From the NCBI GenBank assembly GCA_943354385.1, contig CALRBR010000003.1, forward strand, positions 1,926 to 65,925: a stretch of 64,000 bases of DNA. The letters are read 5' to 3'. The stretch comes from Candidatus Tayloriibacteriota bacterium (GTDB taxonomy: Bacteria > Patescibacteriota > Minisyncoccia > Phycocordibacterales > PALSA-1337). Within the stretch, counting starts at the first letter, position 1. Every line of letters begins with the position of its first letter. A model generated the notes under the pieces. The model had not been told where the DNA came from. It ran no database searches and saw only the letters and a list, made by a program, of their open reading frames with translations. The position numbers and the translations under genes are program-made. Shown here piece after piece: positions 7,364 to 63,825 of this stretch.

Positions 7364-7485
7364 ATAGAGGTATAATAGGTATGCTTTCACTTTGGCCAAT
7401 TGTTATCTTTCCAATTGGCTAAGTAAAGGTAGCAGTCAATACTCCGCACGATCTGACGAGGATCGTGTTAGTGGGTACACTGTTT

Positions 7486-7520
7486 GGCGGTGTCCGGTTT
7501 CCGGACACCGCTATTTTTTT
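7486..7520 (+). terminator. Rho-independent terminator after uvrC
   Basis: GGCGGTGTCCGG-ttt-CCGGACACCGC 11-bp stem followed by TATTTTTTT. Confidence 0.7.
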
Positions 7521-7576
7521 ATTAAGTACGGAGTTATCCACCCTGCTCATAGCTAGATTTTTGCTATACTATACGT

Positions 7577-8542
7577 ATGTCAAAAATAAGAGTCGGGGTA
7601 CTCCGTGGTGGACCATCGAGCGAATACGATGTATCGCTCAAAACTGGTGCGTCCGTGCTAAAACATTTGCCTGAGGAGTATTACGCGCATGATATTTTTA
7701 TATCTAAAGATGGCTCATGGCACAAAGGTGGCATTGTCTATTCTCCAGGGGAGATTATTAAACACCTCGACGTAGTTTTTAATGCACTTCATGGTGAATA
7801 CGGCGAGGATGGCAGAGTCCAGCATCTTCTCGACACCTTTGCTATGCCATACACTGGGTCAGGGTATCTTGCCTCAGCTCTGGGGATGAATAAAACTTTA
7901 GCGAAAAAAGTTTTTACGGAACACGGCATCAAAACACCACTTCATAAGACATTAAATAAAGGTGAATACACTCACGCCGACGTTCTGCAAATTTTTAAAA
8001 CATTCCCAATGCCTGCTGTGGTCAAGCCAGTACGAGCCGGCTCATCGATAGGTGTATCTATTGCTCGCACGGTGCACGAGCTGGAAGCCGCGATTATAAA
8101 AGCATTTGAATACGAAACAGAAGCATTGATTGAAGAATATATTTCTGGTAGGGAAGCGACATGTGGAGTGATCGAGGGTTTTCGTGGGGAAGCGCTGTAT
8201 TCTCTCTTGCCAGTAGAAATAGCCCACAACAGCTCTTCTGGTCTCTTTGACTACGAAGCAAAATATGCTGGCAAGAGCAAAGAGATTTGCCCAGGCAATT
8301 TTACGAAAGTGGAATTAAAAAAGATTCAGGATACCTCGGTCGCTGTCCACAGGGCTCTTGGTCTTCGCCACTACTCACGATCGGATTTTATTGTACATCC
8401 AAAACGCGGCGTGTATATTTTAGAAACTAACACACTACCCGGACTTACCGAAGAATCTCTTTTTCCACTTTCTCTCAAAGCAGTGGGAAGTAGCTTGCCT
8501 GAATTTTTAGGACATGTACTCGAAATGGCGAGGAAAAAATAA
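7577..8542 (+). CDS. ddl: D-alanine--D-alanine ligase
   Basis: 321 aa. N-terminus MSKIRVGVLRGGPSSEYDVSLKTG. ATP-grasp motifs. C-terminal EICPGN..ILETNTLPG. Confidence 0.92.
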   Translation: MSKIRVGVLRGGPSSEYDVSLKTGASVLKHLPEEYYAHDIFISKDGSWHKGGIVYSPGEIIKHLDVVFNALHGEYGEDGRVQHLLDTFAMPYTGSGYLASALGMNKTLAKKVFTEHGIKTPLHKTLNKGEYTHADVLQIFKTFPMPAVVKPVRAGSSIGVSIARTVHELEAAIIKAFEYETEALIEEYISGREATCGVIEGFRGEALYSLLPVEIAHNSSSGLFDYEAKYAGKSKEICPGNFTKVELKKIQDTSVAVHRALGLRHYSRSDFIVHPKRGVYILETNTLPGLTEESLFPLSLKAVGSSLPEFLGHVLEMARKK

Positions 8543-8589
8543 TTTCTACTCTATCTGGGTATTATTGTGGCTAGATGTCTGAATTTGCA

Positions 8590-9324
8590 TTATATACCTG
8601 CAACAATCTTCACCTCCTTCGCCTCGTCAAGTTTTTTACCAGCTGCGATACTGATATCTGCTCGCGCTTGTTCTGGGTCGGCGATGTTTCGTAATGAAAA
8701 TTCTTTTACTGCACCAGAGGACTCGACCTCTACCGTACCAATTTTAAGAAAAGTGTTGATAATGCCGAAAATCTTGATATTCAGGTCGACAATATGTTCT
8801 AGTCGAATCTCTGAAATATCACGCTTAAATAAGTTGATCTGATCCACATCGATCAGGCGCTTATTGGTCAGAACCCAAATATCAAAAAAATAAGTAGTGG
8901 CCATCACTAAAATACCAAAAAATAAAATAACCGACCATGCGAGGTATAGTGTACTTAAAAAAGGAGTTATACTTTTAATGAGCTGAGTCCATTCTTTTGG
9001 TAAGAAATAGACGGCAAAAGGGATGAGAGCGGCTAAAATCACGAGCAGTACATCTAGCAAAAAAATAAACCAGTGTTTCCGAAATACCTTTATGATTTGT
9101 TCATCGGGAAGAAGTTTGACGGCAGAGTATCGATTATACTTGGTCCAGTGATAGAGTAGTGCTATTAGTGTGATGCCACATATAATCACTGTTAGTAGCA
9201 AGATACCACTAATTACGTACGGACTATTTAGAAAAGTTATGATTTGACTCGGGTATATTTCTGATGGGATCATGGTATAGAATAGTATAACATAAGCTAG
9301 ATTGATTGAGATATTTGGGGACAT
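8590..9324 (-). CDS. Membrane protein with bacterial PH (bPH_2/YdbT-like) domain
   Basis: 244 aa. Two or three N-terminal TM helices. C-terminal WVLTNKRLIDVD..IKIFGIINTFLKIGTVEVESSG is typical of the bPH_2 domain. Confidence 0.7.
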   Translation of the reverse strand: MSPNISINLAYVILFYTMIPSEIYPSQIITFLNSPYVISGILLLTVIICGITLIALLYHWTKYNRYSAVKLLPDEQIIKVFRKHWFIFLLDVLLVILAALIPFAVYFLPKEWTQLIKSITPFLSTLYLAWSVILFFGILVMATTYFFDIWVLTNKRLIDVDQINLFKRDISEIRLEHIVDLNIKIFGIINTFLKIGTVEVESSGAVKEFSLRNIADPEQARADISIAAGKKLDEAKEVKIVAGI

Positions 9325-9497
9325 GAGGAGAGTCGGACTCCTACCACATCTATGCAGTGTATGTGTAATACCATTTTATTACAGACTCAATAGATATATA
9401 GTTTACCTTAAAATAGTCTGTCAGCAATGCTTGATTTTTATACTAACATTCGGTATAGTATCTAGGCAGTTTTTAGAGACTGTACCGTCAATAACAT

Positions 9498-9570
9498 GGG
9501 CCCTTAGCTCATCTGGTAGAGCACCTCATTTGCAATGAGGGGGTGGCAGGTTCGAGTCCTGTAGGGTCCA
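9498..9570 (+). tRNA. tRNA-Ala (anticodon UGC)
   Basis: 73-nt cloverleaf. Acceptor GGGCCCT/AGGGTCC with the G3:U70 alanine identity pair. Anticodon loop TTTGCAA. T-loop GGTTCGAGTCC. Discriminator A. CCA not encoded. Confidence 0.9.
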
Positions 9571-9580
9571 CCGAACAGAA

Positions 9581-9607
9581 AAAATCTCCACTGCTGGAGA
9601 TTTTTTC
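9581..9607 (+). terminator. Rho-independent terminator after tRNA-Ala
   Basis: AATCTCCA-ctgc-TGGAGATT 8-bp stem followed by TTTTCG. Confidence 0.75.
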
Positions 9608-9905
9608 GTGTGTGTGGAAAGCGCAGGTATATTTTTTAAGCAGAAAAAATACCGAGCTGGGGTCGCGAGCACTTACGTAGATTGTGAGGTCTTCCGAAAC
9701 AATATACTTAGTGACTCGTGATACACGATAAATAGTAAAAGCGTACTCGCGGTTCCATATAAAAGGCGAGTAAGAGTTCCCGCAGGGTCCCAAATTTTTA
9801 AAGGCGCAACCCAAGATGCACTATATGTGTTGAGACTTTAACCTAATGTAACCGTATTTTACAGCGTAAAATATTTTTTGTGTCAAAATATGCTATCATT
9901 ATACA

Positions 9906-10895
9906 ATGGCGAAAAAGAAACTCTCACAAAAGAATCCGGTAGTCATCTACCAAGCAAAATCTGGGGCTATCGAGCTTCGGGGCGATTTTGGCAAGGAGAC
10001 GATTTGGGCGACCCTTGATCAGATTGCTGAAGTTTTTGGGCGTGATAAATCTGTCATTTCTCGTCACTTTAAAAATATCTATGCTGAGGGGGAGCTGGAT
10101 GAAAAGGCAACTGTTGCAAAAAATGCAACAGTTCAAAAAGAGGGTACTCGTACAGTTGAGCGTATTATTGAATACTATAATCTCGACGCGATTATTTCTG
10201 TCGGGTATCGAGTTAATTCGAGTACCGCTACGAAATTTCGTCAGTGGGCCACCAAGACCCTCCGGAGTTACATCATCGACGGCTTTGCCATCAATCGCTC
10301 ACGTATCGCCAAAAATCACGAGCACTTTCTAAGTGTCGTTGAGGATCTCAAGAAATTATTACCGACCACTTCGGCGATTGATCCAAAAGATGCTATCGAG
10401 CTCATCTCATTGTTTGCCGACACCTGGCTGTCTCTCGATGCCTACGATCGAGAGCTGTTGCCAAAAGGGAAGCTTACTAAAAAGAAAGTCTCCATCACCC
10501 CAGAACAGATTGCAAAAGACTTGGCGACACTCCGGAAGACTCTGATCGAAAAAGGTGAGGCGACCGATGTGTTTGGTAATGAACGAAGCGCAGGGTCTGT
10601 GTCCGGAATCGTGGGAAATGTTCTCCAGGCGTTTGGAGGTAGCGATGTCTACCCAACGATTGAAGAAAAAGCGGCACACCTCTTGTATTTTATGGTTAAA
10701 AATCATCCGTTTACCGACGGCAACAAACGCTCGGGTGCTTTTGCATTTGTCTGGCTCTTAAAACAGGCACGGATTCTCGATATCCGTCGCCTGACCCCTT
10801 CGGCACTTACCGCGCTCACCGTATTGGTGGCAGAAAGTGATCCAAGTCACAAAGATAAGACGGTAAAATTGATTCTTAACATGATTGCAAAGTGA
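9906..10895 (+). CDS. RhuM-family N-terminal domain fused to Fic/Doc (death-on-curing-like) domain protein
   Basis: 329 aa. N-terminal IELRGDFGKETIWATLDQIAEVFGRDKSVISRHF..NSSTATKFRQWATKTL matches the virulence RhuM family. C-terminal HPFTDGNKRSGAFAF matches the Doc-type Fic motif HxFx(D/N)GNKR. Confidence 0.85.
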   Translation: MAKKKLSQKNPVVIYQAKSGAIELRGDFGKETIWATLDQIAEVFGRDKSVISRHFKNIYAEGELDEKATVAKNATVQKEGTRTVERIIEYYNLDAIISVGYRVNSSTATKFRQWATKTLRSYIIDGFAINRSRIAKNHEHFLSVVEDLKKLLPTTSAIDPKDAIELISLFADTWLSLDAYDRELLPKGKLTKKKVSITPEQIAKDLATLRKTLIEKGEATDVFGNERSAGSVSGIVGNVLQAFGGSDVYPTIEEKAAHLLYFMVKNHPFTDGNKRSGAFAFVWLLKQARILDIRRLTPSALTALTVLVAESDPSHKDKTVKLILNMIAK

Positions 10896-10937
10896 TAATG
10901 CTTTGAGGGGCTACCATACAGGACCCAAACCCCCTTC

Positions 10938-10976
10938 AACGGCTCAGTCCTTTTGGCTACAAAGGACTGAGCCGTT
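10938..10976. repeat. AACGGCT-stem palindromic hairpin (AACGGCTCAGTCCTTT-tggctac-AAAGGACTGAGCCGTT)
   Basis: 16-bp perfect stem 3' of the RhuM/Doc gene. Shares the AACGGCTCAGT...ACTGAGCCGTT base with the hairpin at 14472. Confidence 0.6.
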
Positions 10977-11125
10977 AAACCCATACAGCCCTTGTTTTGC
11001 AACGTTTTTCGCCCAGAGGTTATCCAATCGACAAAGAAAATGGTAGACTAAATCTGACTCTTTCGACTTTGGAAAAGATAGCTAGATTGCTCATAATTTA
11101 GAACAGTGAGTCGATGTGAAAAAAT

Positions 11126-11473
11126 ATGAAAGATATAAAAGATTTAACAAAAAGAATAATTGCTTTCCGCGATGCACGGGACTGGAAACAATTTCATAAT
11201 CCAAAAGATGTTGCTTTGTCTTTAGTACTAGAGGCTACTGAGGTGATGGAACATTTTCAATGGAAGAGTAAAGAAGAGATGGAAAAGTATATCGTGACCA
11301 ATAAAGTTGACATAGGTGAAGAACTTGCAGATGTTTTGTATTGGGTACTTTTGATGAGTACAGATCTTAAAATTGATGTTCTCGATGCGCTCGAGAAGAA
11401 GATTTCAAAAAACGAAGAAAAATATCCGGTCGAAAAAGCGAAGGGTAGGCATACAAAATATAATAAACTATAA
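11126..11473 (+). CDS. MazG-like nucleoside triphosphate pyrophosphohydrolase (small all-alpha MazG/NTP-PPase domain)
   Basis: 115 aa. EATEVMEHFQW..EELADVLYWVLLMS matches the EExxE/D metal-binding helices of the MazG family. The stop (11471-11473) abuts the ATG of the next gene (11475). Confidence 0.8.
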   Translation: MKDIKDLTKRIIAFRDARDWKQFHNPKDVALSLVLEATEVMEHFQWKSKEEMEKYIVTNKVDIGEELADVLYWVLLMSTDLKIDVLDALEKKISKNEEKYPVEKAKGRHTKYNKL

Positions 11474-11474
11474 A

Positions 11475-13499
11475 ATGTCAGACATAGCCACCTTTTCATT
11501 TAATGCAACTGGGGTAGAAAAAATACGTAATTATAAATATGGCAGTGATTGGCCGGTTGTTTACTTGATAGAAAATGGGAAAGAACTATATGTTGGAGAA
11601 ACAATCAGAGCGTATGGTAGAACAAAACAGCATTTAGAAAACGAAGCCAGAAAACATTTAAAGATGATTCATGTTATTTCTGACGACGAATTTAATAAAT
11701 CCGCAACTCTGGATACAGAATCTTCACTAATTGAGTATTTGGTCGCAGACGGTAAATATATTCTTCAGAATGGAAATGGAGGTTTACAAAACCATGATTA
11801 TTTTGACCGTGAAAGATACAGGGGTAAATTTGAGTTATTGTGGAAGAAATTGCAGGATTTAAATATTGCCAGTAAAGATTTACTACAGATTCGTAATAGT
11901 GATATTTTTAAATACTCACCGTACAAAACCCTCACGGATGATCAGTATTTAATTGCCTCAAAACTTCTAGAACAGTTTAAGGAGAATAAAATACAGACCT
12001 ATATTATTCATGGAGGTCCTGGTACTGGAAAAACAATTCTTGCCACATTTCTTATTAAGCAATTGATTGAAGCAGGTAAAAAGGATGTTGCTCTTGTTAT
12101 AGCAATGGTCTCTTTGCGAAAGACTTTAAAAAAAGTATTCAGAGATATTCCAGGTTTAAGTCCAAATATGGTGATTGGACCTAATGAGGTTGTAAACCAG
12201 AAATATGACATATTGATTGTTGATGAAACACATCGTTTACACCAGAGAAGAAATATTCCAAATTATGGAACTTTTGACAAAACCAATAGGGCTTTAGGTT
12301 TAGGAAATGAAGGCACAGAACTTGATTGGGTACTTAAATCCGCGAATCAAGTAGTACTTTTTTATGATGAAAAACAATCCGTTAGACCTTCAGATATATC
12401 AATTAACAAAGTTTTAGAATCAAAACCAATCAGTTTTGAACTTAAAACACAGATGCGAGTGAAAGGAGGGGAAAAGTATCTTGAATTTATAGATAAACTT
12501 CTTGAGAATGATGGAAATATTAAGGCTAATTTTTCAGATTATGATTTTAAGATTTGCGATGATCTTGCGGAGATGGTTTCGGATATAAAGAAACAAGATA
12601 AAATTCATTCTTTGTCTCGTTTGGTTGCTGGATATGCTTGGAAATGGATATCCAGAACAAATAATGGAATGCCAGATATTGTAATAGGGGATGTTAAGTT
12701 ATTTTGGAATAGCAAGATTCATGATTGGGTAAATTCCTCAAATGCTATAAATGAAGTGGGCTGTATACATACCATTCAAGGATACGATTTAAACTACGCG
12801 GGAGTAATTATAGGACCTGAAATGCTGTATGATCCAATCACAAAAAAGATTATTGTTGATAAGTCAAAATATCTAGATTCGAATGGTCACAATGGGGTGA
12901 ACGATCCAGAGGAACTTAAGAGGTATATAGTTAATATTTATAAAACACTACTTACACGGGGGATACTTGGAACATATATTTATATTGTTGATGAAAACCT
13001 GAGAAACTATTTCAAGGAAAAATTTGGACAAGAAACTAGTAAAAAAATGGATTTTAAAGAAAATTATAATGAAAGGAAAATAGTTTCTCCTTTCACAATG
13101 GAAATGATCAGAGTTCCTTTGGTTGGCTCTGCGCCGTGTGGAAATCCGCTTCTTGGCGAAGAAAACATTGAGGAATATATTGAAGTAGAAAAAAGCAAAA
13201 TTAAACCTGGCTATAACTATTTTATTCTTCGAGCTACTGGAGACTCGATGAACCTTGTTGGAATAAATGACGGGGATCTGGTGCTCTGTCGCCAGCAATT
13301 AAAGGCTGATACCGGCAACAGGGTTGTTGCTTTATTGGGTGATAATGTAACGATAAAAGAGTACGGTCCCCGCGAGGATGGAGTGCGTCTTCTTTTGCCC
13401 AAGAGCTCAAATAAGGATCATATGCCCATAACCCCAGGCGAAGGAGATAGTGTGCAAGGTATTGTACAGGAGGTGCTTAAAGGAGTAGACGAAGAATAA
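11475..13499 (+). CDS. GIY-YIG nuclease + DUF2075-type P-loop ATPase (SF1-helicase-related, Nhi-like) + C-terminal LexA/UmuD-like S24 peptidase domain fusion protein
   Basis: 674 aa from the ATG at 11475; the ORF-track N-terminal extension overlaps mazG. GIY-YIG (VVYLIENGKELYVGET..R..E..N). Walker A HGGPGTGKT, Walker B ILIVDETHRL. S24 hallmarks: candidate cleavage site SAPCG/NPLL, nucleophile Ser in GDSM, catalytic Lys in VTIKEY, plus a GINDGDLVL..VVA strand pattern as in LexA. Confidence 0.8.
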   Translation: MSDIATFSFNATGVEKIRNYKYGSDWPVVYLIENGKELYVGETIRAYGRTKQHLENEARKHLKMIHVISDDEFNKSATLDTESSLIEYLVADGKYILQNGNGGLQNHDYFDRERYRGKFELLWKKLQDLNIASKDLLQIRNSDIFKYSPYKTLTDDQYLIASKLLEQFKENKIQTYIIHGGPGTGKTILATFLIKQLIEAGKKDVALVIAMVSLRKTLKKVFRDIPGLSPNMVIGPNEVVNQKYDILIVDETHRLHQRRNIPNYGTFDKTNRALGLGNEGTELDWVLKSANQVVLFYDEKQSVRPSDISINKVLESKPISFELKTQMRVKGGEKYLEFIDKLLENDGNIKANFSDYDFKICDDLAEMVSDIKKQDKIHSLSRLVAGYAWKWISRTNNGMPDIVIGDVKLFWNSKIHDWVNSSNAINEVGCIHTIQGYDLNYAGVIIGPEMLYDPITKKIIVDKSKYLDSNGHNGVNDPEELKRYIVNIYKTLLTRGILGTYIYIVDENLRNYFKEKFGQETSKKMDFKENYNERKIVSPFTMEMIRVPLVGSAPCGNPLLGEENIEEYIEVEKSKIKPGYNYFILRATGDSMNLVGINDGDLVLCRQQLKADTGNRVVALLGDNVTIKEYGPREDGVRLLLPKSSNKDHMPITPGEGDSVQGIVQEVLKGVDEE

Positions 13500-13502
13500 T
13501 TT

Positions 13503-14015
13503 ATGAGTGATAATCAATTTTCAAAATTAAACGACGAGGAACTGTGGCTTCAATATGCCGATACCGAACTAGAATTAAAAAATAGAGGTTTGGTGCGTAC
13601 TAGAAATATCGTTGGTGAGCGTGGAGAATTTCTTGCGATTGCAACCTACAATTCAATTGCGGGTATGCCAAATCTTCAAGCTGCACCAGAGGGAACACAA
13701 AATGTTGATGCCATAAGTCGAAAAGGAGAAAGATATAGTATAAAAACAATTTCTGAACCGGGTTCAACAACAGGAGTTTTTTATAATTGCGGTGAAAAAG
13801 ATGATAAAAATATACCTGAAAGAAAGTTTGAGTATGTAATTATTGTTCAACTTTTTAAAAATTATAGACCAAAAAGGATTATTGAATTAAATTGGGAAAT
13901 ATTCTTAAGGTATAAAAAATGGCACTCAACGATGCGTGCATGGAATTTGAGCGTGACTAGAGCCTTATTAGCAGATAGTAAACTTATTTATGAAAATATA
14001 GAGAGCATACCTTAA
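13503..14015 (+). CDS. Hypothetical protein, third gene of the MazG/DUF2075 operon
   Basis: 170 aa. Starts 3 nt after the preceding stop. No confident family. Possible D...E.K-like nuclease signature (NVDAISRKGERYSIK), weak. Confidence 0.6.
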   Translation: MSDNQFSKLNDEELWLQYADTELELKNRGLVRTRNIVGERGEFLAIATYNSIAGMPNLQAAPEGTQNVDAISRKGERYSIKTISEPGSTTGVFYNCGEKDDKNIPERKFEYVIIVQLFKNYRPKRIIELNWEIFLRYKKWHSTMRAWNLSVTRALLADSKLIYENIESIP

Positions 14016-14101
14016 TTGCCAAATGTTGTGTAAGAATTGATTAGCAAGAACCGTTCTTGCTAAGTTGAGTCGGTGGGTTTAGTACAGCGTGACTAAAACC
14101 A

Positions 14102-14440
14102 GTGTTGTGTGATTCCAAAAATGCTATACTTACTCCCATGAACACCACCGCGATTATTCTTTTTGCTGTCGTTATTCTCGGACTTTTGGGTTGGGGCTAT
14201 CGCAATCGGGGGAATATACATTGGTCTCCTGACGAGCGGGGTAAAAATAAAGCGGAACACAAGAAAACAATCATGACCTTGTTCTCGACTGATGGAGCCC
14301 GAATCACCAATGACGATGTACAGAAGCTGGTAAATGTATCAGACGCCACTGCCACCCGCTATCTAGACGAGCTCGAACAAGAAAAACAGATCACGCAGGT
14401 AGGTAGGGAAGGCAAATACGTGTATTACGAAAAAAGGTAA
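14102..14440 (+). CDS. Hypothetical small membrane-anchored protein with C-terminal winged-helix-like segment
   Basis: One TM helix (TTAIILFAVVILGLLGWGY). C-terminal VSDATATRYLDELEQEKQITQVGREGKYVYY resembles a wHTH. The true start may be M at 14138. Confidence 0.5.
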   Translation: MLCDSKNAILTPMNTTAIILFAVVILGLLGWGYRNRGNIHWSPDERGKNKAEHKKTIMTLFSTDGARITNDDVQKLVNVSDATATRYLDELEQEKQITQVGREGKYVYYEKR

Positions 14441-14471
14441 AAATACCCCCCAACCAAGGCCTTGTTTACTT

Positions 14472-14512
14472 CAACGGCTCAGTGGTCTGAATACAGTACC
14501 ACTGAGCCGTTG
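14472..14512. repeat. AACGGCT-stem palindromic hairpin (CAACGGCTCAGTGGT-ctgaatacagt-ACCACTGAGCCGTTG)
   Basis: 15-bp stem. The conserved base AACGGCTCAGT is shared with 10938. The distal stem differs with compensatory changes. Confidence 0.6.
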
Positions 14513-14559
14513 AGGCAGTAAGTAGTGCTCTCTATTTATTTTCTGATATAATATACTGC

Positions 14560-15267
14560 ATGACTAAAATATATATTTCAGCTACTTTGGTAGCTTTGGT
14601 GCTTGTGGGTGTAGGGTGGTTTGTATTAGAAAAAGGTAATAAGGCTGAACGGTCTGGTACGAGTGCTAGTGCAAATACCCTGACCACAGCCAAAACCACA
14701 AATACTCCAGAGGCAAGCACAAATAAACCGACTCCAGAAACAGTAAGCGAAACGAAACCAAGTAACACAACCACTAACTCCGTCAAAAAAATCATGAATG
14801 CTACATTTAAAACAAATAAAGGGGATATCACGATCGAATTTAATGAAAAAGGGACACCAAATACTGTCGCCAATTTCATCAAACTTGCTCAAGCAAAATT
14901 TTATGATGGCGTGAAATTCCATCGAGTGATCAAAGGCTTTATGATCCAAGGTGGAGACCCGCTGAGCAAGGATGATTCGCAGGCAGCACGATGGGGGACT
15001 GGCGGTCCAGGCTATACTTTTGCCGATGAGATCAATCCTGAAAATAAAAATGATGCAGGTACTATTTCCATGGCCAATGCTGGTGCAAATACAAACGGTA
15101 GTCAATTTTTTATTAACGTAAATAACAATAATTTTCTTGACCCAAAGCACACCGTATTTGGTCGTGTAGTAAAAGGCCTCGAGGTGGTAAAGGCTATTGA
15201 AAATACTCCCACATCATCTGAACGGCCGATTGATCCGGTGATTATCGAGAGTATTGTGCTTCAGTAG
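14560..15267 (+). CDS. Cyclophilin-type peptidyl-prolyl cis-trans isomerase, membrane-anchored
   Basis: 235 aa. N-terminal TM helix plus Thr/Asn-rich linker. Cyclophilin core FHRVIKGFMIQGGDP..GTISMANAG.NTNGSQFFI. Confidence 0.85.
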   Translation: MTKIYISATLVALVLVGVGWFVLEKGNKAERSGTSASANTLTTAKTTNTPEASTNKPTPETVSETKPSNTTTNSVKKIMNATFKTNKGDITIEFNEKGTPNTVANFIKLAQAKFYDGVKFHRVIKGFMIQGGDPLSKDDSQAARWGTGGPGYTFADEINPENKNDAGTISMANAGANTNGSQFFINVNNNNFLDPKHTVFGRVVKGLEVVKAIENTPTSSERPIDPVIIESIVLQ

Positions 15268-15280
15268 TATAGGCAAAACA

Positions 15281-16594
15281 ATGGTAAAAGCCCTCCTCAA
15301 AAAAATCATCCCGAAACAGCTCTTTTCAGCCTACTATTATGGTCTCGCGATAGGCTCTGCGATGTATTATGGAAAGCCGTCGGAAAAAATGATAGTGATC
15401 GGTGTCACAGGTACTAAGGGTAAGACATCTACCTGCAATTTTATTTGGGCTGGACTGAGTGAAAAATATAAAGTGGGTATGATCACTAGCGCCAATATTC
15501 GTATCGGCGATGATGAGGAGCTCAATGCCTACCACATGACTATGCCTGGTCGCGCGACTATTCAGCGACTAATGAAAAAAATGATGGATGCTGGTTGTCA
15601 GTATTGTGTGATAGAAACCACCTCTGAGGGCATTAAACAATTCCGGCACAAAGGTATTGCGTACGACACTCTAGTCTTTACCAACCTCACTCCTGAGCAT
15701 CTCCCTTCACATGGCGGAAGTTTTGAAAATTATAAACAAGCTAAAGGTACTATTTTTAAGGAGCTGTCACAGAGACCGAAAAAAGTGATCGATGGAAAGG
15801 AAATTCCGACGACGGTTATAGTAAATGCCGACAGCGAACACAAAGACTATTTCCTAAGTTTCCCTGCGGACAGTAAATTGACATATAGTATCGTCAATCC
15901 ATCTGACTTTCAGGTCAAAGGCTCTATACACACCCCTCTTGGCCCCCAATTTACCCTAGGAGACGCGAGCTATCATCTCTCGATACTTGGCACATTTAAT
16001 ATATATAATGCCTTGCCGGCGATTATAATCGCAGAGAAAGCGGGAATTATCCCCGCCGATATTCAGGCGGGGCTAGAAAGGCTGACCCTTATTCCTGGTA
16101 GAATGGAGCAGATTAAAGAAGGACAAAACTTTTCAGTGATTGTCGACTATGCGCACGAAAAAGAAAGTATGGGGGCGCTTCTCGCTACGGCAAAGTCGAT
16201 GCGACCGGCAGGCAAAAAGATTATCGTAGTACTCGGTGCTGAAGGTGGTGGACGAGATAAAGCAAAGAGGCCAGCCATGGGACAGATCGTAGGCAAAGAA
16301 GCTGACTATGTAGTAGTCAGTGATGTAGATCCATACGAGGATGATCCAAAGCAAATCGCTGAGGATATTGCCGTAGTGGCAGAAAAAATGGGTAAGGTTC
16401 GTGAGCAAAATTTATTCACTATTTTGGATAGAAAAGAGGGGATTGCAAAAGCACTTTCTCTAGCAAAAACGGGAGATATTGTACTCATCACTGGCAAGGG
16501 TGCTGAGCAGTCGATGTATACCAATTCAGGCAAGATAGCTTGGGATGATCGGACGGTTGTGAAAGAGTTGTTAAGAAATAAAATACAAAACTAA
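15281..16594 (+). CDS. Mur ligase family protein (MurE/MurF-like UDP-N-acetylmuramoyl peptide ligase)
   Basis: P-loop VIGVTGTKGKTSTC. Mur ligase middle and C-terminal domains (DYAHEKESM, LITGKG). The ORF-track start at 15254 overlaps the cyclophilin stop, so the ATG at 15281 is preferred. Confidence 0.8.
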   Translation: MVKALLKKIIPKQLFSAYYYGLAIGSAMYYGKPSEKMIVIGVTGTKGKTSTCNFIWAGLSEKYKVGMITSANIRIGDDEELNAYHMTMPGRATIQRLMKKMMDAGCQYCVIETTSEGIKQFRHKGIAYDTLVFTNLTPEHLPSHGGSFENYKQAKGTIFKELSQRPKKVIDGKEIPTTVIVNADSEHKDYFLSFPADSKLTYSIVNPSDFQVKGSIHTPLGPQFTLGDASYHLSILGTFNIYNALPAIIIAEKAGIIPADIQAGLERLTLIPGRMEQIKEGQNFSVIVDYAHEKESMGALLATAKSMRPAGKKIIVVLGAEGGGRDKAKRPAMGQIVGKEADYVVVSDVDPYEDDPKQIAEDIAVVAEKMGKVREQNLFTILDRKEGIAKALSLAKTGDIVLITGKGAEQSMYTNSGKIAWDDRTVVKELLRNKIQN

Positions 16595-28744: not shown

Positions 28745-30118
28745 TCAGGTTCCCGTCGGACCGGGCAAAACCCTGAACTTGATCTCGGGATTCATCCCGG
28801 AGATCTTGATCAGGTTTGAGCCCGTCCGCTCGGCGAGGAACTTTGCGAATAGCTTCCCCAGGTTGCTCTGCTGGAGAGTCTCCCTGTCCTTGACGTAATC
28901 GTCATTGTCGGCCAAATCCTTTGCATGATGCGCGAGGAAGAGGTCGAGTGCCGACTGCGCCACTGCTATGTCTTCCTGGGTTTTGACGTCCACTGCGAGG
29001 GAGTATTCCCGAGTGATCACCTGACCACCCTTTGATTCCCGCGAGTCAAACTTTCGGAAGGTCCAACCAATCCCCCAACCACGGTCTTTGAGTCCCTTAT
29101 CCAGGGTGACCGTATTGATGTGCTTCACGAGCACGCGACCAGCCTTGAATGCCGGAGCCTTCGGTGCGGGAACGACTTGCGTTACTTTCGTGGGAGGCTG
29201 AACCTCGGCCGGCGGAGTCGCAGGCGCCTTCTGGGCCTTCACTTTCGCCGGTTGCTTGGGAGCAACAGGTGGAGCGGGGGCTAGCGCAGGTGCGAGCGTA
29301 GCGGGCTTCGGGGTCACGATCACTTTGGTCGGGACTGCCGACGTCAGTGTCCCAGTTGTCACGTTGGTGATGGTAAATGTCACGGGTGTGGGTTGCACAA
29401 CCGTCACATTCGTCACCACATTCTGAATGGTCACCGGCGGGGTTGCCGCAGGTGCCACATTCACAATGTTCGTGACAGCCGACGCCTGCACCGTAAAGGT
29501 CGCCGTTGAGGGCGCGACATTGACGATGTTGGTGATAGTGGGAACCTGCACTGTCGTGTAGTTCGTCACATTCACCACCGGCGGTTTCTGCGTGGAGATC
29601 TTCTCCAGCAGTTTCAGTTGGCCTTCGCCAACTTTCGCAAACCGTTCGAACACAGCGAGCTTGCTGTCGAGTTTTTCAGCCTTCAAGGCTTGCTCGCGTT
29701 GCTTCTCGATGTGTGCGCGGTCAGCCTTGGTCGTCGCCGCTTGGGCGTCGCTCAGGGCCATCTGGCGTTTGTGCACATCGCGGAGCTCTTGCTCGATCTG
29801 CTTCTGCACTGTCGTCTCGTGAAGAGTCGGCGGGACAGGAACGGGATTGGCAACAAGCACCGGAGCCGTGTCTTGCTTCTTGAGCGAAGCCAAGGAGTCA
29901 TGGCCGTTGGTCACGATGTAGGTGAACACGCAAGCCACCACAGCGAGAAACAGGACGGTCATGATAACCGCAAACATGTTCTTCTCTTTCTGCTTGGGGT
30001 TCGGGCTGACCGTGGGATCCCCGATGCCGAGCCAATGATTGTAGGCCCAGGCGCCGAGGACGGTGCAGAACACGACGAAGGCGGCCATCTGGAGGAGGAG
30101 TGACAGGGTGGAGTTCAT
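28745..30118 (-). CDS. Hypothetical membrane-anchored protein with coiled coil, VTNIVNVAP repeats and Pro/Ala-rich linker, encoded in a GC-rich (60-67%) island
   Basis: 457-aa ORF. Local GC is 60-67% against ~38% for the window. No recognisable family. Likely start at MFAVIMTV (~29977), giving a single TM helix. Confidence 0.6.
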   Translation of the reverse strand: MNSTLSLLLQMAAFVVFCTVLGAWAYNHWLGIGDPTVSPNPKQKEKNMFAVIMTVLFLAVVACVFTYIVTNGHDSLASLKKQDTAPVLVANPVPVPPTLHETTVQKQIEQELRDVHKRQMALSDAQAATTKADRAHIEKQREQALKAEKLDSKLAVFERFAKVGEGQLKLLEKISTQKPPVVNVTNYTTVQVPTITNIVNVAPSTATFTVQASAVTNIVNVAPAATPPVTIQNVVTNVTVVQPTPVTFTITNVTTGTLTSAVPTKVIVTPKPATLAPALAPAPPVAPKQPAKVKAQKAPATPPAEVQPPTKVTQVVPAPKAPAFKAGRVLVKHINTVTLDKGLKDRGWGIGWTFRKFDSRESKGGQVITREYSLAVDVKTQEDIAVAQSALDLFLAHHAKDLADNDDYVKDRETLQQSNLGKLFAKFLAERTGSNLIKISGMNPEIKFRVLPGPTGT

Positions 30119-38829: not shown

Positions 38830-39205
38830 AAAATCGGCAATGTTGGCTAAAATTCTCTCGGTCCCTGGATTTTCTACTAAAATCCAGGGGCCTTCCCAAA
38901 TTACCCTTCTACACAGCCACCAAACTCCCACCACACCATAGTACTTGACATTTATGTACATAGTATGCTATAATAGATAAATAAAGGTAAGTAATGGTTC
39001 TTTGATACAAGTTCGCCGACAGGATAGTGTGTGGGAGATAAAAAGGTAATATTCGCTCAGTTGATTTAATTTTACCGAACCACACCTTTCATCTCTCCCC
39101 CACTCTTCTGTCGTGTGAACAACTAAATACACATAATGGATCTTGTGCTCCCGTTTGGGCACGGAGGTAGGAATCGGAAACAGTCGGAAGGAAAAAAGGA
39201 AAATT

Positions 39206-40009
39206 ATGTTACGCAACATCACCTCCCTCGCAACAGCGATGGGACCAAAGTTCGACAAGATGTGGAGAATCGACGGCCAGTTTGGCCTCGAGGACCCCAC
39301 GCTCACGGTCATCCAAGTGCGAATGAGCTTCTTGGGCAACCAGCACCGCGTCCTCGCACGGGAGGTAGATGAGAAAATCTCCACCCGTCCGGGCACGGAT
39401 TTCAAAAAAATCCAGGGGGCGAAATACGTCCCTCTCGGCAAGGAAGTCATCCGCACGCACGGCGTGCGGATCACCAACCTATCTGCGGGGTTGCGAAACA
39501 ACAACTGGAGGTTGGTCGAACTTTACAAAACAACGGGATGGGTCAAGAACCAATATGATCCCCGTGGGCCACAACTCGAGAAGACCACCATCATGCAGGA
39601 GTGGCTCCGGTTTGAAAATATGGACGATGGCTCCCGTCCCACACAGGATGGAATCCCCATCGAAAAGACCGCGGCGAGCTTCGGTATCAGTGTCGAACAT
39701 CTCCAACAAAAGCTGGCAGCACTCGACGCCCTGCCAAAAGTCAAGGTTTTCGGGGCAGACACGCTAGACCTCATCCGTGAGCTCAACCGTGGCAAAGCAT
39801 GGAAAGATGCATTCGTGTGGGAGAACCCTCCAGGGATGTATCCCGATCGGTCCGGCCAGCTCGTCATGCAGGAGGATGGCATCCTGGCAATCAACGTTCG
39901 TGGCCCCAGCTGGGACCAGAACGCTAGGGGCGCCAACAACGCGTTGGTCGTCCACGATCACCATCTGATGGTGGTCAAAAATCTCCAGCCTGGAGAGATG
40001 GAGGAATAA
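39206..40009 (+). CDS. Hypothetical protein encoded in a second GC-rich (~60%) island
   Basis: About 267 aa from MLRNIT; the ORF-track start is at 39143. GC is ~60% against ~38% in the flanks. No family recognised. Confidence 0.55.
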   Translation: MLRNITSLATAMGPKFDKMWRIDGQFGLEDPTLTVIQVRMSFLGNQHRVLAREVDEKISTRPGTDFKKIQGAKYVPLGKEVIRTHGVRITNLSAGLRNNNWRLVELYKTTGWVKNQYDPRGPQLEKTTIMQEWLRFENMDDGSRPTQDGIPIEKTAASFGISVEHLQQKLAALDALPKVKVFGADTLDLIRELNRGKAWKDAFVWENPPGMYPDRSGQLVMQEDGILAINVRGPSWDQNARGANNALVVHDHHLMVVKNLQPGEMEE

Positions 40010-44231: not shown

Positions 44232-44305
44232 ACGCAGGTGGCGGAACAATGCGGACGAGGTTTAGCGAAAACTATTTTTTGGGTTGAGAAAGTGGGGACA
44301 CTTTT
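44232..44305 (+). repeat. Partial (third) copy of the repeat family that flanks the R-M cassette
   Basis: GCAGGTGGCGGAACAATGCGGACGAGGTTTAGCGAAAACTATTTTTTGGG closely matches 58795-58850 (GCAGGTGGCGGAACAATGTGGACGAAGTTTTGGCAAAACTATTTTTTGGG). Similarity decays afterwards. Confidence 0.65.
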
Positions 44306-58156: not shown

Positions 58157-58774
58157 GAATACAATATCTCTGGGTATTTAACAACAGTTTTTATAAGGAA
58201 ATGGTCGCTGACTGAGCAATCTTGTTGATATAAAAAATCGCCTGCGGGACTTGGACCATGAGTACATTTATCTCCCGCGACTAAATTTTGCTACCCGCAG
58301 AATTTGTCTGGACACCGCCTAACATTTTTATTTACTAATAAAAAAGGGCTCCGGAGTTCGATTCCAAGCGAAGGTAGTACCCACCACTTTCTTCCCGCAT
58401 AAAAATACCTTTGGTATTTTGGCTGCGGGACTTGGACGCTTCGCTATCTCACTCGCCCTCCGTGTGTCGGGCTCTTTAGAAACCCACGGTTTCTAACACT
58501 CGAGTACTCGTTGTTTTCCTCCACGGGGAACTCCCGTTCCCCGACCACTCCCCGTTCGATTCCAAGTCCCTCCGTAAAACGGCGCTTTGCGCGTTTGGCT
58601 GTGTCTCCTGAACAAAATCCGAACTTTTTACCAACAAAATCCCGATGTGGAATGAATCGTTCCGCCACTGCCTCGCTTCACTCGGCAACACCAAAGAAAA
58701 ATGTTCCTTGCTTTCCTGATTTGGCGGTGGTGAAATTTTTCTTGAAAAAGGAAAGGACATTTTTCTTCGGTGTT

Positions 58775-58967
58775 CTGCCCTCAAGGTCTCGGGCAGGTGG
58801 CGGAACAATGTGGACGAAGTTTTGGCAAAACTATTTTTTGGGGAAAGGATTTGCCAAAACTTCGGCTCATTTGTTTTTGAATTCGGATGTCGCAAATGGA
58901 AAAAGAGGGGTTTGGGGAGGAATTTTCCATTTGCTCCTCTTTTTGTTTTGGCGAAATTCGGGGCGGA
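58775..58967 (+). repeat. Left terminal inverted repeat of the R-M cassette (repeat family copy B)
   Basis: 58802-58967 is the reverse complement of 63834-64000, with 3 mismatches in ~166 bp. Confidence 0.85.
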
Positions 58968-58995
58968 CAAAAAACAGAAAAATCAAATCCAATTT

Positions 58996-61038
58996 TCATT
59001 CTTTCACTATTTTTATAGAAAATTGTATATTTTCGGCTTGATAATTCAAACGTTCACATATTTTTGCTAAAAATGCGATTATTCCATTAGCACTCATATT
59101 ACCCTCTACGACTTCATTCGTGCGAAATTCTAGTGAGTGTCTAAGCGGTTTGTCTTTATTAAAATACCATTTGAATTCTGAACTATTCTGAATTTCAGTA
59201 AATTGTGTCGGAGAATATTCGTATAAGAAATTGCAAGTTTTAGTTAGTAAATCTCTCCAATTTTTTAATTCAATTCCTTTTTCATCTTCTTCAAAATATA
59301 AATGAGAGGGCTTGCTTCGACTAAAACTATCTTCACTGGTTAAATCAAATAACTGTTCTTCTGGAATTGGTTTTGAATATGTTGTTTTTGGGTATGGCCA
59401 AATGTCTTTAGCATTTTTGACTAGATCTTTTGCTCTTTCCACTATTTTTTCTTCATTCCAAATTGTTAAACCCTCAAGTTTATAATTTAATTTTAGTCTA
59501 CTAACTTGAAAATCAATCTGTTGCTTATCTTCAAAAGAACTGTTTGATAATTCAGTATTTTTTGCAGTTAAACTTAAATTTCCAAGAGTGTGTAGATATT
59601 TATTATGTATTTCTTGCCAATTTTCTCCTAGTTTATTTTTCCAATCCTTTGTTAAAGTTTGAGGCATTATATGTTCAACAGTTAATTCATCTAAACTGAC
59701 GGGATAAGCGGAGTGGAAATTTTCTAAAGATTCTAACAAGAAATTTCTATTTTTTGATTGAAGTCTATATATCTCTTTATTTATAAGTGCACTTTCAAAT
59801 TCTTCATTGTTTGGAAATCTCTGAGAGACTCTTTTTTCAAGTAGAATATAACTCAAAATATTAATATATTGCTCTTTCCACGACTCTTCTTTTTTAATAT
59901 CTCTAGCTAGGGAAATAAATAACTTATTCAATCCTTGCGTAGTATTGTCTACTAAAATCTTTCTAAAAGCATAACTTTCTATGATAAGAAGGATATCTTT
60001 TGTAGTTTCTTCCGTTATATTTTTAGAATCTAGCTCATTAAAAACATCCAACAAGTACGGATAACAAACTGTGAACTCTATTTTATTTATTTTTAACAGT
60101 TCTTTATTGATGGCACTATTGGGATGATTTTGAATTTGTGTTAACCAGCTATAAATTCCAGCAAAATATAATAAGTCTTTCAAGACACCTTCCTTGTTTT
60201 TATAGAAGTTATCTGTTGATAATTTTTTAAAAACAGAGTAAACATCATCTTTTTTAACCCAAATCCTTAGTTTAAAAATTAAATAATTTCTTACAAATTC
60301 CGCTATATCACCAGTTGATTTTTCAATTTCAACCCAGTATTTCTTATACATTTGCTCTTGTTGGAGCGGTTCTAAATCCATTAGGATATAATTGCGTATC
60401 AAATCACCAGCGGTAAGATCTACTCCAGTAGAATTTAAGCTTTCAAAAATCAATTGGGGATCGTCTTGCCCCCTCACCAAATCTATTAAAACTATTTTTA
60501 ATCTTCTAAATGCCTCGAATAGTTGTTGAGGAGTTAATGCTTCAGATGAAATTTTATCAAAAAAGAAATTATAGTTAGTAACTATATTAGAATTAGCATT
60601 TAAGTTATTGGAATTTTCAAACAGATTTTCAAAATTCTCCTTATCTTGTTTGTTTGGCTTTAATCTAATTCTTTTATCTTTTTCGGGAGAATATTTATTA
60701 ACAAGAAAATCTAATAACTGCTCTATTAAAATATTTTCTTCATTATTTTTTGTTTCTTTTGTCTTTAAAAACTTGTGTAAGGCGATCAACATGATCGAAA
60801 CCGTTGTTAGTCTTTGTTGCCCATCAATTATGGTATATTCCTCAAATCCGCTACCAATTGTAACAAGAGTACCCAAAAAATGATCACTCCTAGTATTGTT
60901 ATTCAGGTCTACTAAATCATCCCATAGCTTCTGACAATTTATTCTTGTCCAAGCATAATCTCTTTGGTATACAGGTATAGCAAAACTTTTCCCTGTGCCT
61001 TCTAAGAATTGATAAATTGGTAATTGTTGAACTTGCAT
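58996..61038 (-). CDS. GmrSD-like type IV (modification-dependent) restriction enzyme, DUF262 + DUF1524 architecture
   Basis: 680 aa. N-terminal DUF262/ParB-like NTPase with IPVYQRDYAW and DGQQRLTT motifs. C-terminal DUF1524 His-Me finger (ELTVEHIMPQT..W..LGNLSL). Confidence 0.8.
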   Translation of the reverse strand: MQVQQLPIYQFLEGTGKSFAIPVYQRDYAWTRINCQKLWDDLVDLNNNTRSDHFLGTLVTIGSGFEEYTIIDGQQRLTTVSIMLIALHKFLKTKETKNNEENILIEQLLDFLVNKYSPEKDKRIRLKPNKQDKENFENLFENSNNLNANSNIVTNYNFFFDKISSEALTPQQLFEAFRRLKIVLIDLVRGQDDPQLIFESLNSTGVDLTAGDLIRNYILMDLEPLQQEQMYKKYWVEIEKSTGDIAEFVRNYLIFKLRIWVKKDDVYSVFKKLSTDNFYKNKEGVLKDLLYFAGIYSWLTQIQNHPNSAINKELLKINKIEFTVCYPYLLDVFNELDSKNITEETTKDILLIIESYAFRKILVDNTTQGLNKLFISLARDIKKEESWKEQYINILSYILLEKRVSQRFPNNEEFESALINKEIYRLQSKNRNFLLESLENFHSAYPVSLDELTVEHIMPQTLTKDWKNKLGENWQEIHNKYLHTLGNLSLTAKNTELSNSSFEDKQQIDFQVSRLKLNYKLEGLTIWNEEKIVERAKDLVKNAKDIWPYPKTTYSKPIPEEQLFDLTSEDSFSRSKPSHLYFEEDEKGIELKNWRDLLTKTCNFLYEYSPTQFTEIQNSSEFKWYFNKDKPLRHSLEFRTNEVVEGNMSANGIIAFLAKICERLNYQAENIQFSIKIVKE

Positions 61039-61087
61039 AATAACTACATATTAGCATTTTTAGCCCTTAATATCAACGATTCTTAAT

Positions 61088-61837
61088 TTATTTTTGAAAC
61101 ACAAAAAGATGTTCGTGCATTATCAGTAAGAAGTTTGATTCCTTTGATTTTGTGACCCAAAAACCTGTTGCTTTGCAATTAAACTGTCTTTTGATTATGT
61201 CCTCTTTTAAAACAAAACCTACATCTAAAAACTTCTGCATTACCTTAAATGCAAGAGGTTGATACATTTTATTTCTGCGAGTGTCTCCCATTAAAATTGC
61301 ACAGTATTTTCCTTTCTTTAAAACTCGAAACAACTCTTTGGCAACTTTTTCTATTTCATCAACAAAAACGTCTATGTCGTGTATTCCCGAAAGATCTTCC
61401 TTAATCTTACCCTCACTGTATTTTATTATGTCTGCATAGGGAGGATGAGTTAAAACAAAATCAATTTCATTGTCTTTAATAAAGCTCATATCTCTCGCAT
61501 CACATTTCACGATCCGTTGTTTCGCTTTATTATCAACCTCAAATTCAAGAGATTTTTTAGTTCTCTCTAGTGCTTCTTCATTTACATCAATACAAGTAAT
61601 ATGGCGATTTAGTATCTTTGCTTCTATTGCCGTAGTACCTCCACCGATCATGCAATCGAGCAAGTGATCTTTTTCTTTTGAATAACGCAAAATAAGATTG
61701 CGGGCTACTTCGGGCGACCAGTTTCCGCGCCAGTCAGAAGTATGCGTTGCCCAATTACCACGACGAGGAAAAGCCCATACGGTTGTACACTCTAGTTCAA
61801 ATTCATCTGGGTTAAGTTTCATCTCTATTTCAGACAT
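61088..61837 (-). CDS. SAM-dependent DNA methyltransferase (amino-MTase; motif I before motif IV)
   Basis: 249 aa. AdoMet motif LLDCMIGGGTTAIEA. Catalytic (D/H)PPY-type motif DFVLTHPPYADII. Its start abuts the REase stop (61837/61838). Confidence 0.75.
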   Translation of the reverse strand: MSEIEMKLNPDEFELECTTVWAFPRRGNWATHTSDWRGNWSPEVARNLILRYSKEKDHLLDCMIGGGTTAIEAKILNRHITCIDVNEEALERTKKSLEFEVDNKAKQRIVKCDARDMSFIKDNEIDFVLTHPPYADIIKYSEGKIKEDLSGIHDIDVFVDEIEKVAKELFRVLKKGKYCAILMGDTRRNKMYQPLAFKVMQKFLDVGFVLKEDIIKRQFNCKATGFWVTKSKESNFLLIMHEHLFVFQK

Positions 61838-63557: not shown

Positions 63558-63561
63558 ATGT

Positions 63562-63774: not shown

Positions 63775-63825
63775 AGTATAGCACTAACATTTACATTATA
63801 CACCAATATTATAGTATAATGTAAT

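Follow-up and report, generated by a model that had tools for sequence, protein, structure and literature searches.

A probable mosaic defence island without its own recombinase at the tRNA-Ala(UGC)/cyclophilin junction of a patescibacterial genome

In the 64-kb stretch of a Candidatus Tayloriibacteriota contig analyzed here (hereafter the window, to whose positions all coordinates refer unless a contig with an L-number is named), a tRNA-Ala(UGC) gene is followed directly by about 5 kb of accessory genes, and it is the nature and origin of this segment that we consider. The host belongs to the Patescibacteria (Paceibacteria/Taylorbacteria-like), and the closest relatives of its Ddl protein are all found in metagenome-assembled genomes (MAGs) from that group. 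Upstream lie the core genes uvrB, a response regulator, uvrA, uvrC, and ddl, then a small gene for a bacterial-PH-like (bPH-like) protein; beyond 14560, the core genes are cyclophilin, Mur ligase, G6PD, FtsW, and MurG. Between these flanks are five genes, every one on the plus strand, in 4.95 kb (9572-14537). A first-pass annotation, made from the sequence alone, had described some 5 kb of non-core genes 3' of tRNA-Ala(UGC) and its terminator, giving way to cyclophilin, Mur ligase, and zwf, and our domain searches matched its gene list. The features of the locus are as follows.

9498-9572 by ARAGORN, 9498-9570 by Rfam (63.9 bits), plus strand: tRNA-Ala(UGC), which anchors the hot spot on its left side and has its discriminator base at 9570.
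9573-9905, plus strand: left arm of the island, with a terminator, a second hairpin, a tRNA-end-like match, and a promoter-like site.
9906-10895, plus strand: module 1, a RhuM N-terminal domain fused to Fic/Doc (Pfam PF13310 and PF02661, the latter at E=1.5e-11).
10919-11054, plus strand: H1 block, a conserved non-coding junction of 136 nt, 91% identical to L001 9661-9796.
11126-11473, plus strand: module 2a, a MazG-like all-alpha NTP pyrophosphohydrolase (Pfam PF12643, E=1e-15).
11475-13499, plus strand: module 2b, a 674-aa protein with GIY-YIG, a DUF2075 (Schlafen group 3, SLFN-g3) helicase, and a C-terminal S24 domain (Pfam).
13503-14015, plus strand: module 2c or 3, a 170-aa candidate BisI-like PD-(D/E)XK-type methyl-directed restriction endonuclease (PADLOC mREase_II).
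14041-14063, plus strand: hairpin ending the low-GC block at its 3' side, where GC goes from 0.345 to 0.458.
14102 or 14138 to 14440, plus strand: TM-wHTH gene, encoding an N-terminal transmembrane (TM) helix and a winged helix-turn-helix (wHTH; Pfam HTH_24, E=1e-4).
14471-14513, plus strand: hairpin H2, at the right island edge (fold z=-5.8).
14520-14919, plus strand: probable right recombination tract, comprising the cyclophilin promoter and the first ~360 nt of the gene (mismatch map, four-way alignment).

The left edge of the island is at 9572, and the right edge lies at ~14520-14537, just past hairpin H2 and ~25 nt ahead of the cyclophilin ATG. Within the left arm, sequence and folding identify a bidirectional terminator at 9577-9607, with a canonical A-run/stem/T-run, followed by the second hairpin at ~9625-9655, and a promoter scan places the promoter-like site at 9880-9907, ahead of the RhuM-Doc gene. 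This left-arm sequence is unlike the tRNA-proximal terminator common to L204, an island-free contig of the same species, and L001, a contig of the nearest other species. An Rfam scan of 9300-15000 returned nothing besides the tRNA.

The alleles present at the junction were collected by searching for every contig that encodes an identical bPH-like protein, the gene for which lies between ddl and the tRNA. There are three alleles within the species, each of which diverges 1-2 nt past the tRNA discriminator base.

Allele A1, the island: the window, L081-L083, L215, and L220-L222.
Allele A2, the empty site: L204 and L224.
Allele A3, a large serine recombinase gene abutting the tRNA (PF07508 and PF13408): L218.

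The empty-site contig L204 (2983 bp), which was found through a 96%-identical cyclophilin homolog (P0001) and comes from the same study as the island-bearing contigs, has the order ddl, bPH, tRNA-Ala, 123 nt, cyclophilin. Its positions 1-2113 align with window 7469-9583 at 99.15% identity, with zero mismatches over 8210-9571 (1362 nt), and its positions 2237-2983 align with 14538-15284 at 94.6% identity. The empty-site allele shows directly that the island is accessory. Several assemblies end at the tRNA, and two more breaks fall at or near H1, that of L222 inside the hairpin and that of L215 ~220 nt past it, within the MazG-like gene; breaks at the tRNA end and at H1 are the pattern that strain heterogeneity produces.

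Comparison with more distant genomes, which the first-pass annotation had proposed, leads to the same picture. At class level, the order uvrA-uvrC-ddl-tRNA-Ala is widely kept and the downstream side is scrambled and uninformative, except in L035, where tRNA-Ala is followed at once by cyclophilin; in other words, both the conspecific L204 and the class-level L035 run from ddl and tRNA-Ala to cyclophilin without the island. Across the 80 class-level relatives, the 10 kb that follow ddl are free of the island genes, so these are not the conserved core content of relatives that the same annotation had considered as an alternative. A reading in which the segment is no island at all, only core content or a chimeric mis-assembly, could appeal to the codon usage and GC of the island, which lie within ~1.7 standard deviations (sd) of other window genes. 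It is already refuted by these relatives, by the empty-site allele in the same species, and by the identical island having been assembled independently from no fewer than five samples or MAGs (at 99.95-99.99% identity).

In the congener L001 (core genes at 77-85% nucleotide identity), tRNA-Ala is followed by ~215 nt, the H1 block, and a Dam methylase gene, and the RhuM gene is absent from this position. Because L001 has the H1 block ahead of other cargo, the locus comprises at least two independently variable slots, with a conserved non-coding block between them. Variation extends to the 5' side of the tRNA, since the bPH-like gene of the window species (244 aa, weak bacterial-PH-domain matches, 8590-9324 on the minus strand) is missing in L001, where only 73 nt separate ddl from the tRNA. 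It should also be mentioned that tRNA-Ala(UGC) is inverted relative to ddl in nine of the 37 class-level relatives that carry it close by (L013, L015, L017, L022, L024, L025, L028, L035, and L048) and that L077 has a split tRNA-Ala 3' remnant only (11466-11520). Inversion and rearrangement are recurrent at the tRNA-Ala/ddl locus of relatives.

How the island alternates with the empty site can be read from its flanks. Since the window nowhere contains the 123-nt spacer of L204, the island and empty alleles differ by a replacement, not by a clean insertion. On the right, L204 differs from the window by 39 mismatches in 14538-14919 (~10% divergence) and by one in 14920-15284, and this flank is mosaic: in the promoter and in the 14799-14919 patch, the window resembles the species represented by L205 and L204 resembles that represented by L206. 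Because the spacer is replaced and the divergence runs into cyclophilin with mosaic similarity, homologous recombination via the core flanks is indicated. Clustered mismatches are also seen between otherwise identical conspecific strains, with 26 in 120 nt of cyclophilin (14799-14919) and 10 in 67 nt of ddl (8083-8149); these two patches are small recombination tracts in core genes.

The first-pass annotation had remarked that no integrase or excisionase is visible, and this is borne out: domain searches found no integrase, recombinase, transposase, or excisionase domain either in the island genes or in the other checked open reading frames (ORFs) and gene calls of the window, nor any Phage_integrase or IntI match among these, ORFs below ~100-140 aa not having been scanned systematically. 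Part of the 25-64 kb region was annotated through gene calls on the conspecific contigs L213 and L214 and not on the window itself. The only repeat offered earlier, a 7-nt AGGGTCC match at 9783, is indeed no usable att repeat: it is really part of an 11/14 match to the tRNA 3' end (9778-9791), which is equalled in 24% of shuffles. A search for degenerate tRNA 3'-end repeats, as had been suggested, yielded nothing significant in direct orientation at 9778 and nothing at the right edge, and thus no attL/attR direct repeats of the tRNA 3' end flank the island. What it did yield is an inverted, T-arm-like remnant at 10910-10931 on the minus strand (16/22, p ~0.01 in a shuffle test), which stands at the opening of the H1 block, and L001 also has a T-arm-like fragment beside H1, with a 12-nt exact match.

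The composition of the island is uneven. GC is 0.446 in 9573-11054, 0.345 in 11055-14050, and 0.458 in 14051-14537, with steps at ~11055 and ~14050, and the flanks are at 0.40-0.41. In 3-kb steps, GC drops to 0.345 or below only in the MazG-to-BisI block and in another variable stretch, at 58.6-64 kb, and the GC of the RhuM-Doc and wHTH parts is like that of the host or slightly above it. The codon usage of all island genes lies within ~1.7 sd of the remaining window genes. The 3-kb MazG-to-BisI block stands out by its low GC, but codon usage, which the first-pass annotation proposed to test, does not separate the island from other window genes. Composition gives partial support for foreignness, and a codon-usage or GC outlier test alone is not decisive.

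The tRNA-Ala junction is nevertheless a genuine target of integrative elements, because L218 carries a serine recombinase there and tRNA 3'-fragments are scattered in relatives. From the flank in L218, 300 residues at the C-terminus of a large serine recombinase can be read; its gene converges on the tRNA, and the ORF runs into the tRNA complement. This fragment has no relatives among viral contigs. One of the two origins proposed in the first-pass annotation was an old, decayed integrative element. A prophage, satellite, or integrative mobilizable element that entered at the tRNA-Ala 3' end and lost its recombinase gene and most of its backbone, leaving the defence cargo, would account for the left edge lying exactly at the tRNA end, for the recombinase gene of L218 at the identical junction, for the inverted T-arm-like fragments beside H1 in the window and L001, for the split remnant in L077, and for the inverted tRNA-Ala of the nine relatives; RhuM and Doc genes are typical cargo of genetic islands and prophages, such as Salmonella SPI-3 at selC and phage P1, and entry by a serine recombinase would leave no direct repeat. 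We consider this origin unlikely, because there is no att repeat (the match at 9778 not being significant), the empty-site spacer is kept at neither island end, the recombinase-bearing allele has no homology inside the window, phage and conjugation genes are absent from the island, its modules differ in GC and occur separately elsewhere, and its hairpin pattern is unmatched in viral contigs.

The hairpins themselves invite another explanation. H1 has a 19-bp stem (10935-10979, fold z=-3.5), and the H1 block ends with a possible extended -10 element (TGGTAGA). H1 and H2 have in common an exact 15-nt left arm, CTTCAACGGCTCAGT, plus its complement, and this arm motif has four matches in 64 kb versus 0.19 expected. 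Both stems are near-perfect, at 17-20 bp, with no bulges or extrahelical bases, and the ~75 nt after H1 (10980-11054) are kept between alleles with differing cargo. Elsewhere in the lineage, hairpins with the outer stem AACGGCT...AGCCGTT are gene-end structures with compensatory inner-stem changes, as in the response-regulator/uvrA spacer of both the window species and L001. A metagenome scan for the H1/H2 stem found at least 120 loci, at 30-74% GC, which we judge to be mostly chance or terminator hairpins and not a mobile family; by our estimate, hundreds of millions of hairpins would by chance yield roughly this number of matches to any 11-nt stem. A scan of viral contigs for the H1/H2 hairpin pattern gave zero matches.

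If H1 and H2 were recombination sites for a recombinase encoded elsewhere, the island would be a hairpin-directed cassette array, integron-like or REP-like. The two hairpins, with their exact 15-nt arms, do bracket the MazG-to-wHTH segment; H1 is where the cargo of the window and that of L001 part; H2 lies within ~8 nt of the right boundary; contigs L222 and L215 break at or just past H1; and the hairpin ends (CTTCAAC...GTTAAAC or GTTGAAC) loosely fit RYYYAAC...GTTRRRY. However, the stems, as essentially perfect palindromes, lack the extrahelical bases by which attC sites are defined, there are two sites only and no IntI or other recombinase among the checked ORFs and gene calls, the conservation of 10980-11054 between alleles is unlike a crossover inside H1, AACGGCT...AGCCGTT hairpins are ordinary gene-end terminators in this lineage, the metagenome matches are roughly at chance level, and the MazG-helicase module occurs elsewhere without such hairpins. 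Such an array is very improbable, and the specific integron/attC reading of H1/H2 was rejected on the grounds of perfect palindromes, no IntI, and conserved sequence past H1. We treat H1 and H2 as lineage-typical terminator palindromes at module junctions; that they are recombination landmarks organizing cassette exchange at hot spots of the candidate phyla radiation (CPR) is a weaker, unsupported possibility.

A low-GC subset of the metagenome loci does look like a genuine family of repeated palindromes, often situated just past tRNA or wHTH genes. On metagenome contigs with GC of 0.30-0.37 (L099, L117, L120, L136, L142, L154, L156, L180, L192, L202, and others), hairpins of the form TTCAACGGCTCAGTC...GACTGAGCCGTTGAA are present in several copies per contig, often directly after tRNA genes and with compensating changes in the inner stems. 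Some CPR-like lineages appear to carry these palindromes as a REP-like family.

Taken together, these observations lead us to the explanation that 9572-14537 is a strain-variable, recombinase-less mosaic defence island exchanged by homologous recombination at a tRNA-Ala/cyclophilin hot spot, to which we assign a probability of roughly 0.7. The earlier description of an accessory, integrase-less island beside a tRNA holds, and of its two proposed origins the evidence leans to modular assembly with exchange by homologous recombination, because the island replaces the empty site instead of being inserted into it, its flank is mosaic, and its modules occur separately elsewhere. As a mosaic, the island would combine three or more pieces, each acquired separately, namely the RhuM-Doc gene, the low-GC operon of MazG-like, helicase, and BisI-like genes, and the TM-wHTH gene with its hairpin, joined by the 136-nt H1 block that is present in the sister species before other cargo. 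The whole allele would be gained or lost between strains via homologous recombination, for which the conserved tRNA/ddl side and cyclophilin would serve as arms. The DNA would most likely enter by uptake, which is plausible given the competence and pilus genes that have been reported in Patescibacteria alongside genomic islands, including restriction-modification islands (PMC12455944). The island would not have been moved by a site-specific recombinase of its own, the tRNA junction being used independently by the serine-recombinase element. We read the hot spot as having been seeded by integrative elements over evolutionary time, and its present alleles as mosaics swapped by homologous recombination.

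Several points weigh against this explanation. Divergence exactly at the tRNA 3' end is also expected from site-specific integration, and it is inseparable from conservation that ends with the tRNA. A single complete island configuration was recovered, so the turnover of modules within the species is deduced from the sister species and the contig breaks at H1. The left flank is identical, so the left recombination endpoint is unmappable, and the recombination tract in cyclophilin could be a separate event. As for a defensive role of the cargo, the active site of the BisI family is E ... xD ... QxK (PMC11347163), and in the BisI-like protein E42, D69, and K81 are invariant, yet Ser79 (SIK) stands where BisI enzymes have QxK, which makes its activity uncertain.

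The function of the island, as far as its gene content suggests, would be layered anti-phage defence. The RhuM-Doc protein is a candidate single-gene abortive-infection toxin: it has a full-length match to PADLOC PDC-S23 (E=1.7e-112) and a match under the cut-off to TIGR01550 DOC_P1 (E=2.7e-7), and its motif HPFTDGNKR is of Doc type, fitting HxFx(D/N)(A/G)NKR. Doc is the toxin of phage P1, and by analogy with it the Doc-type kinase toxin would arrest translation. The two are alike in the Doc-type Fic motif HxFxDGNKR; unlike Doc, the protein here is a RhuM fusion with no adjoining gene for a Phd-like antitoxin, and PDC-S23 is itself a computational candidate.

The MazG-like gene stops 1 nt ahead of the start of the helicase gene, the true start of which is ATG 11475 and not TTG 11373. 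The helicase had been called a DUF2075-S24 fusion, and both domains are there (PF09848, E=3e-66; PF00717, Peptidase_S24, E=1.6e-19), but the protein has an additional N-terminal GIY-YIG nuclease domain (E=3e-4). The S24 tail matches positions 79-200 of TIGR00498 lexA (E=3.6e-22) as well as LexA and UmuD structures in the PDB. Invariant in 36 homologs are Walker A and B; the GIY-YIG residues Y30, Y39, G41, R49, E82, and N99; the Ser-Lys dyad, G589-D-S591-M and K628; and C555-G556, which lies inside VPLVGSAPCGxPLL and aligns with the cleavage-site region of LexA. The LexA/UmuD-type self-cleaving domain thus appears to be intact. It resembles LexA, UmuD, and lambda CI in the GDSM serine, the catalytic lysine, and the Cys-Gly scissile bond (as in UmuD), and differs in that S24, whose cleavage is predicted, sits here on a nuclease-helicase and not on a DNA-binding repressor domain or a polymerase subunit.

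PADLOC also returned partial matches of the helicase to Nhi (E=3.7e-15) and AbiO (E=4.6e-14), the Nhi match covering no more than the ATPase core, at residues 179-402 of the query, an ORF of 708 aa (~145-368 in the 674-aa protein). Proteins joining a nuclease and DUF2075 (Nhi and Nhi-like) are experimentally validated phage defences (10.1101/776245; 10.1101/2022.05.11.491447), and MDRE genes beside DUF2075 NTPases were noted earlier (PMC6765204). Our protein is like Nhi of S. epidermidis and the Nhi-like proteins (Millman et al. 2022) in carrying an N-terminal nuclease and a DUF2075 SF1-type helicase in one polypeptide. The nuclease is GIY-YIG here and PD-(D/E)XK in Nhi, and the helicase here has a MazG-like gene upstream and a C-terminal S24 domain, unlike a stand-alone single gene.

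The MazG-like gene is directly upstream of the helicase gene in all five Patescibacteria contexts that were examined, each of them a different locus. At the four other loci, DNA homology extends from the MazG ATG to the helicase 3' end only; terminal repeats of the module were sought there and none were found, homology stopping at the ORF ends, and H1/H2-type hairpins were not found at the module elsewhere. The third gene slot is occupied by HEPN_AbiU2, XRE-SocA (SocA/Panacea), Fic, or nothing, so that the neighbours of the module in other genomes are also of defence type. At one locus (L211/L212 6643-9001), the pair and a Fic gene stand directly after rpsL-rpsG, in the normally conserved str operon neighbourhood. 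Outside the phylum, both of the Bacillus thuringiensis megaplasmids examined carry the pair, with the MazG-like protein 52% and the helicase ~37% identical and without the S24 tail, and more distant homologs are paired with DUF3578 or nothing. Natural S24-less forms of the helicase are 517-523 aa long, and we propose that they correspond to the cleaved product. The S24 fusion was not found in phage and plasmid collections, and no description of the MazG/DUF2075/S24 combination was found in the literature searched.

From these features we venture, tentatively and with the odds against it, that the MazG-like and GIY-YIG/DUF2075 pair may form an anti-phage system not described before, one shared by two phyla or more, in which S24 would be a RecA-single-stranded DNA (ssDNA) sensor captured in Patescibacteria and the third gene an exchangeable effector slot. 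By analogy with LexA and UmuD, RecA-ssDNA filaments, formed when phages replicate or DNA is damaged, would set off cleavage at Cys555-Gly556 and so switch the nuclease-helicase on or off. Within the island, the Nhi-like nuclease-helicase would be released or re-tuned by this self-cleavage, with the MazG-like nucleotide pyrophosphohydrolase as its probable partner.

The gene that follows the helicase, starting 4 nt after its stop, had been listed as an unknown of 170 aa, a label that can be replaced: the product is a candidate BisI-like methyl-dependent nuclease, with a full-length match to PADLOC mREase_II (E=3.8e-57) and a weak match to Eco15I in the PDB (E=0.011 with a single sequence, 9e-4 with a profile, chiefly over the first 70 residues). 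The candidate enzyme would cut cytosine-methylated DNA. It is similar to Eco15I, of the BisI family, in length (170 versus 174 aa), in an N-terminal helix with a conserved Glu, and in the xD motif, whereas overall similarity is weak (E ~1e-3) and QxK reads SIK. In its own family, homologs at 70-81% identity number more than 700, and wherever a source is named it is a MAG of Patescibacteria/Parcubacteria. The last gene of the island, that for the TM-wHTH protein, more likely starts at ATG 14138 and is absent from the empty-site allele. It has homologs at 53-76% identity in L163, L185, and L140, and an H2-type hairpin follows directly in the first two and is ~500 nt away in L140; because of the adjoining hairpin in L163 and L185, the wHTH gene and H2 look like one unit.

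The window contains a second strain-variable defence region, at 58634-64000, with GC of 0.29-0.36 and its genes on the minus strand: GmrSD (58996-61038), an N6_N4 methylase, DUF6996/6997, a Dam D12 methylase (62601-63557), and an HTH controller (63562-63774). The conspecific L214, 99.7% identical up to 58634, has HTH, N6_N4 methylase, and ResIII at that site instead. The Dam gene that follows the H1 block in L001 (9796-10209) has 81% nucleotide identity to 63147-63560 in this cluster, and defence genes appear to shuttle between hot spots. An inverted repeat with 98.2% identity over 166 nt or more (58802-58967 and 63835-64000) encloses the 58-64 kb cluster and runs past the window end. A partial copy of 41 nt lies at 44243-44283, and a copy of 88 nt (83%) is found in the class-level L077 (11670-11757), ~750 nt downstream of ddl and beside the tRNA-Ala remnant. 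The element has no Rfam match and may be a small mobile or RNA element tied to hot spots. Elsewhere in the window, which is 41% GC, the ORFs at 28745-30118 and 39143-40009 stand out at GC 0.58 and 0.56, with GC at third codon positions ~0.70 (z ~+3) and no Pfam match.

Two kinds of known system can be set beside the island. Salmonella pathogenicity island 3 (SPI-3) at selC is a tRNA-linked island and the source of the RhuM name. The island described here is like such islands in lying directly 3' of a tRNA, in its accessory cargo including a RhuM-family gene, and in its presence/absence polymorphism. Unlike them, it lacks both an integrase and att direct repeats, it replaces the empty allele, and it is just 5 kb long in a reduced Patescibacteria genome. 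In other words, it has the tRNA 3' location of an integrase-mediated tRNA island, but not the recombinase, attL/attR, or precisely joined empty site. Core-genome defence hot spots have been described in Pseudomonas, E. coli, and Vibrio, and these have in common with our locus the varying defence genes per slot, the core flanks, the absence of mobility genes, and the signature of homologous recombination. The locus has both a defence-type cluster and differing or no cargo per slot (the three alleles and the Dam allele of L001). It is unlike those hot spots in that the tRNA at its edge is also used by a serine-recombinase element, a hairpin block is common to its alleles, and its host is an uncultivated member of the CPR.

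The genomes of Patescibacteria are tiny and, to our knowledge, largely lack CRISPR. How these bacteria acquire and exchange immunity is a practical question, to which a single uncultivated species here contributes a natural series of three alleles. A small, mosaic, tRNA-anchored defence island is a known kind of feature and is otherwise ordinary, genomic islands, restriction-modification islands among them, having already been reported in Patescibacteria (PMC12455944); what this locus adds is the allele series with its recombination footprint and the gene pair with its LexA-like switch. The footprint in the flank suggests that homologous recombination suffices to move defence cargo at a tRNA-anchored hot spot even when the cargo has no mobility genes of its own, and the LexA-like tail, in a widespread and uncharacterized gene pair, suggests that a defence nuclease may be linked directly to the RecA damage signal.

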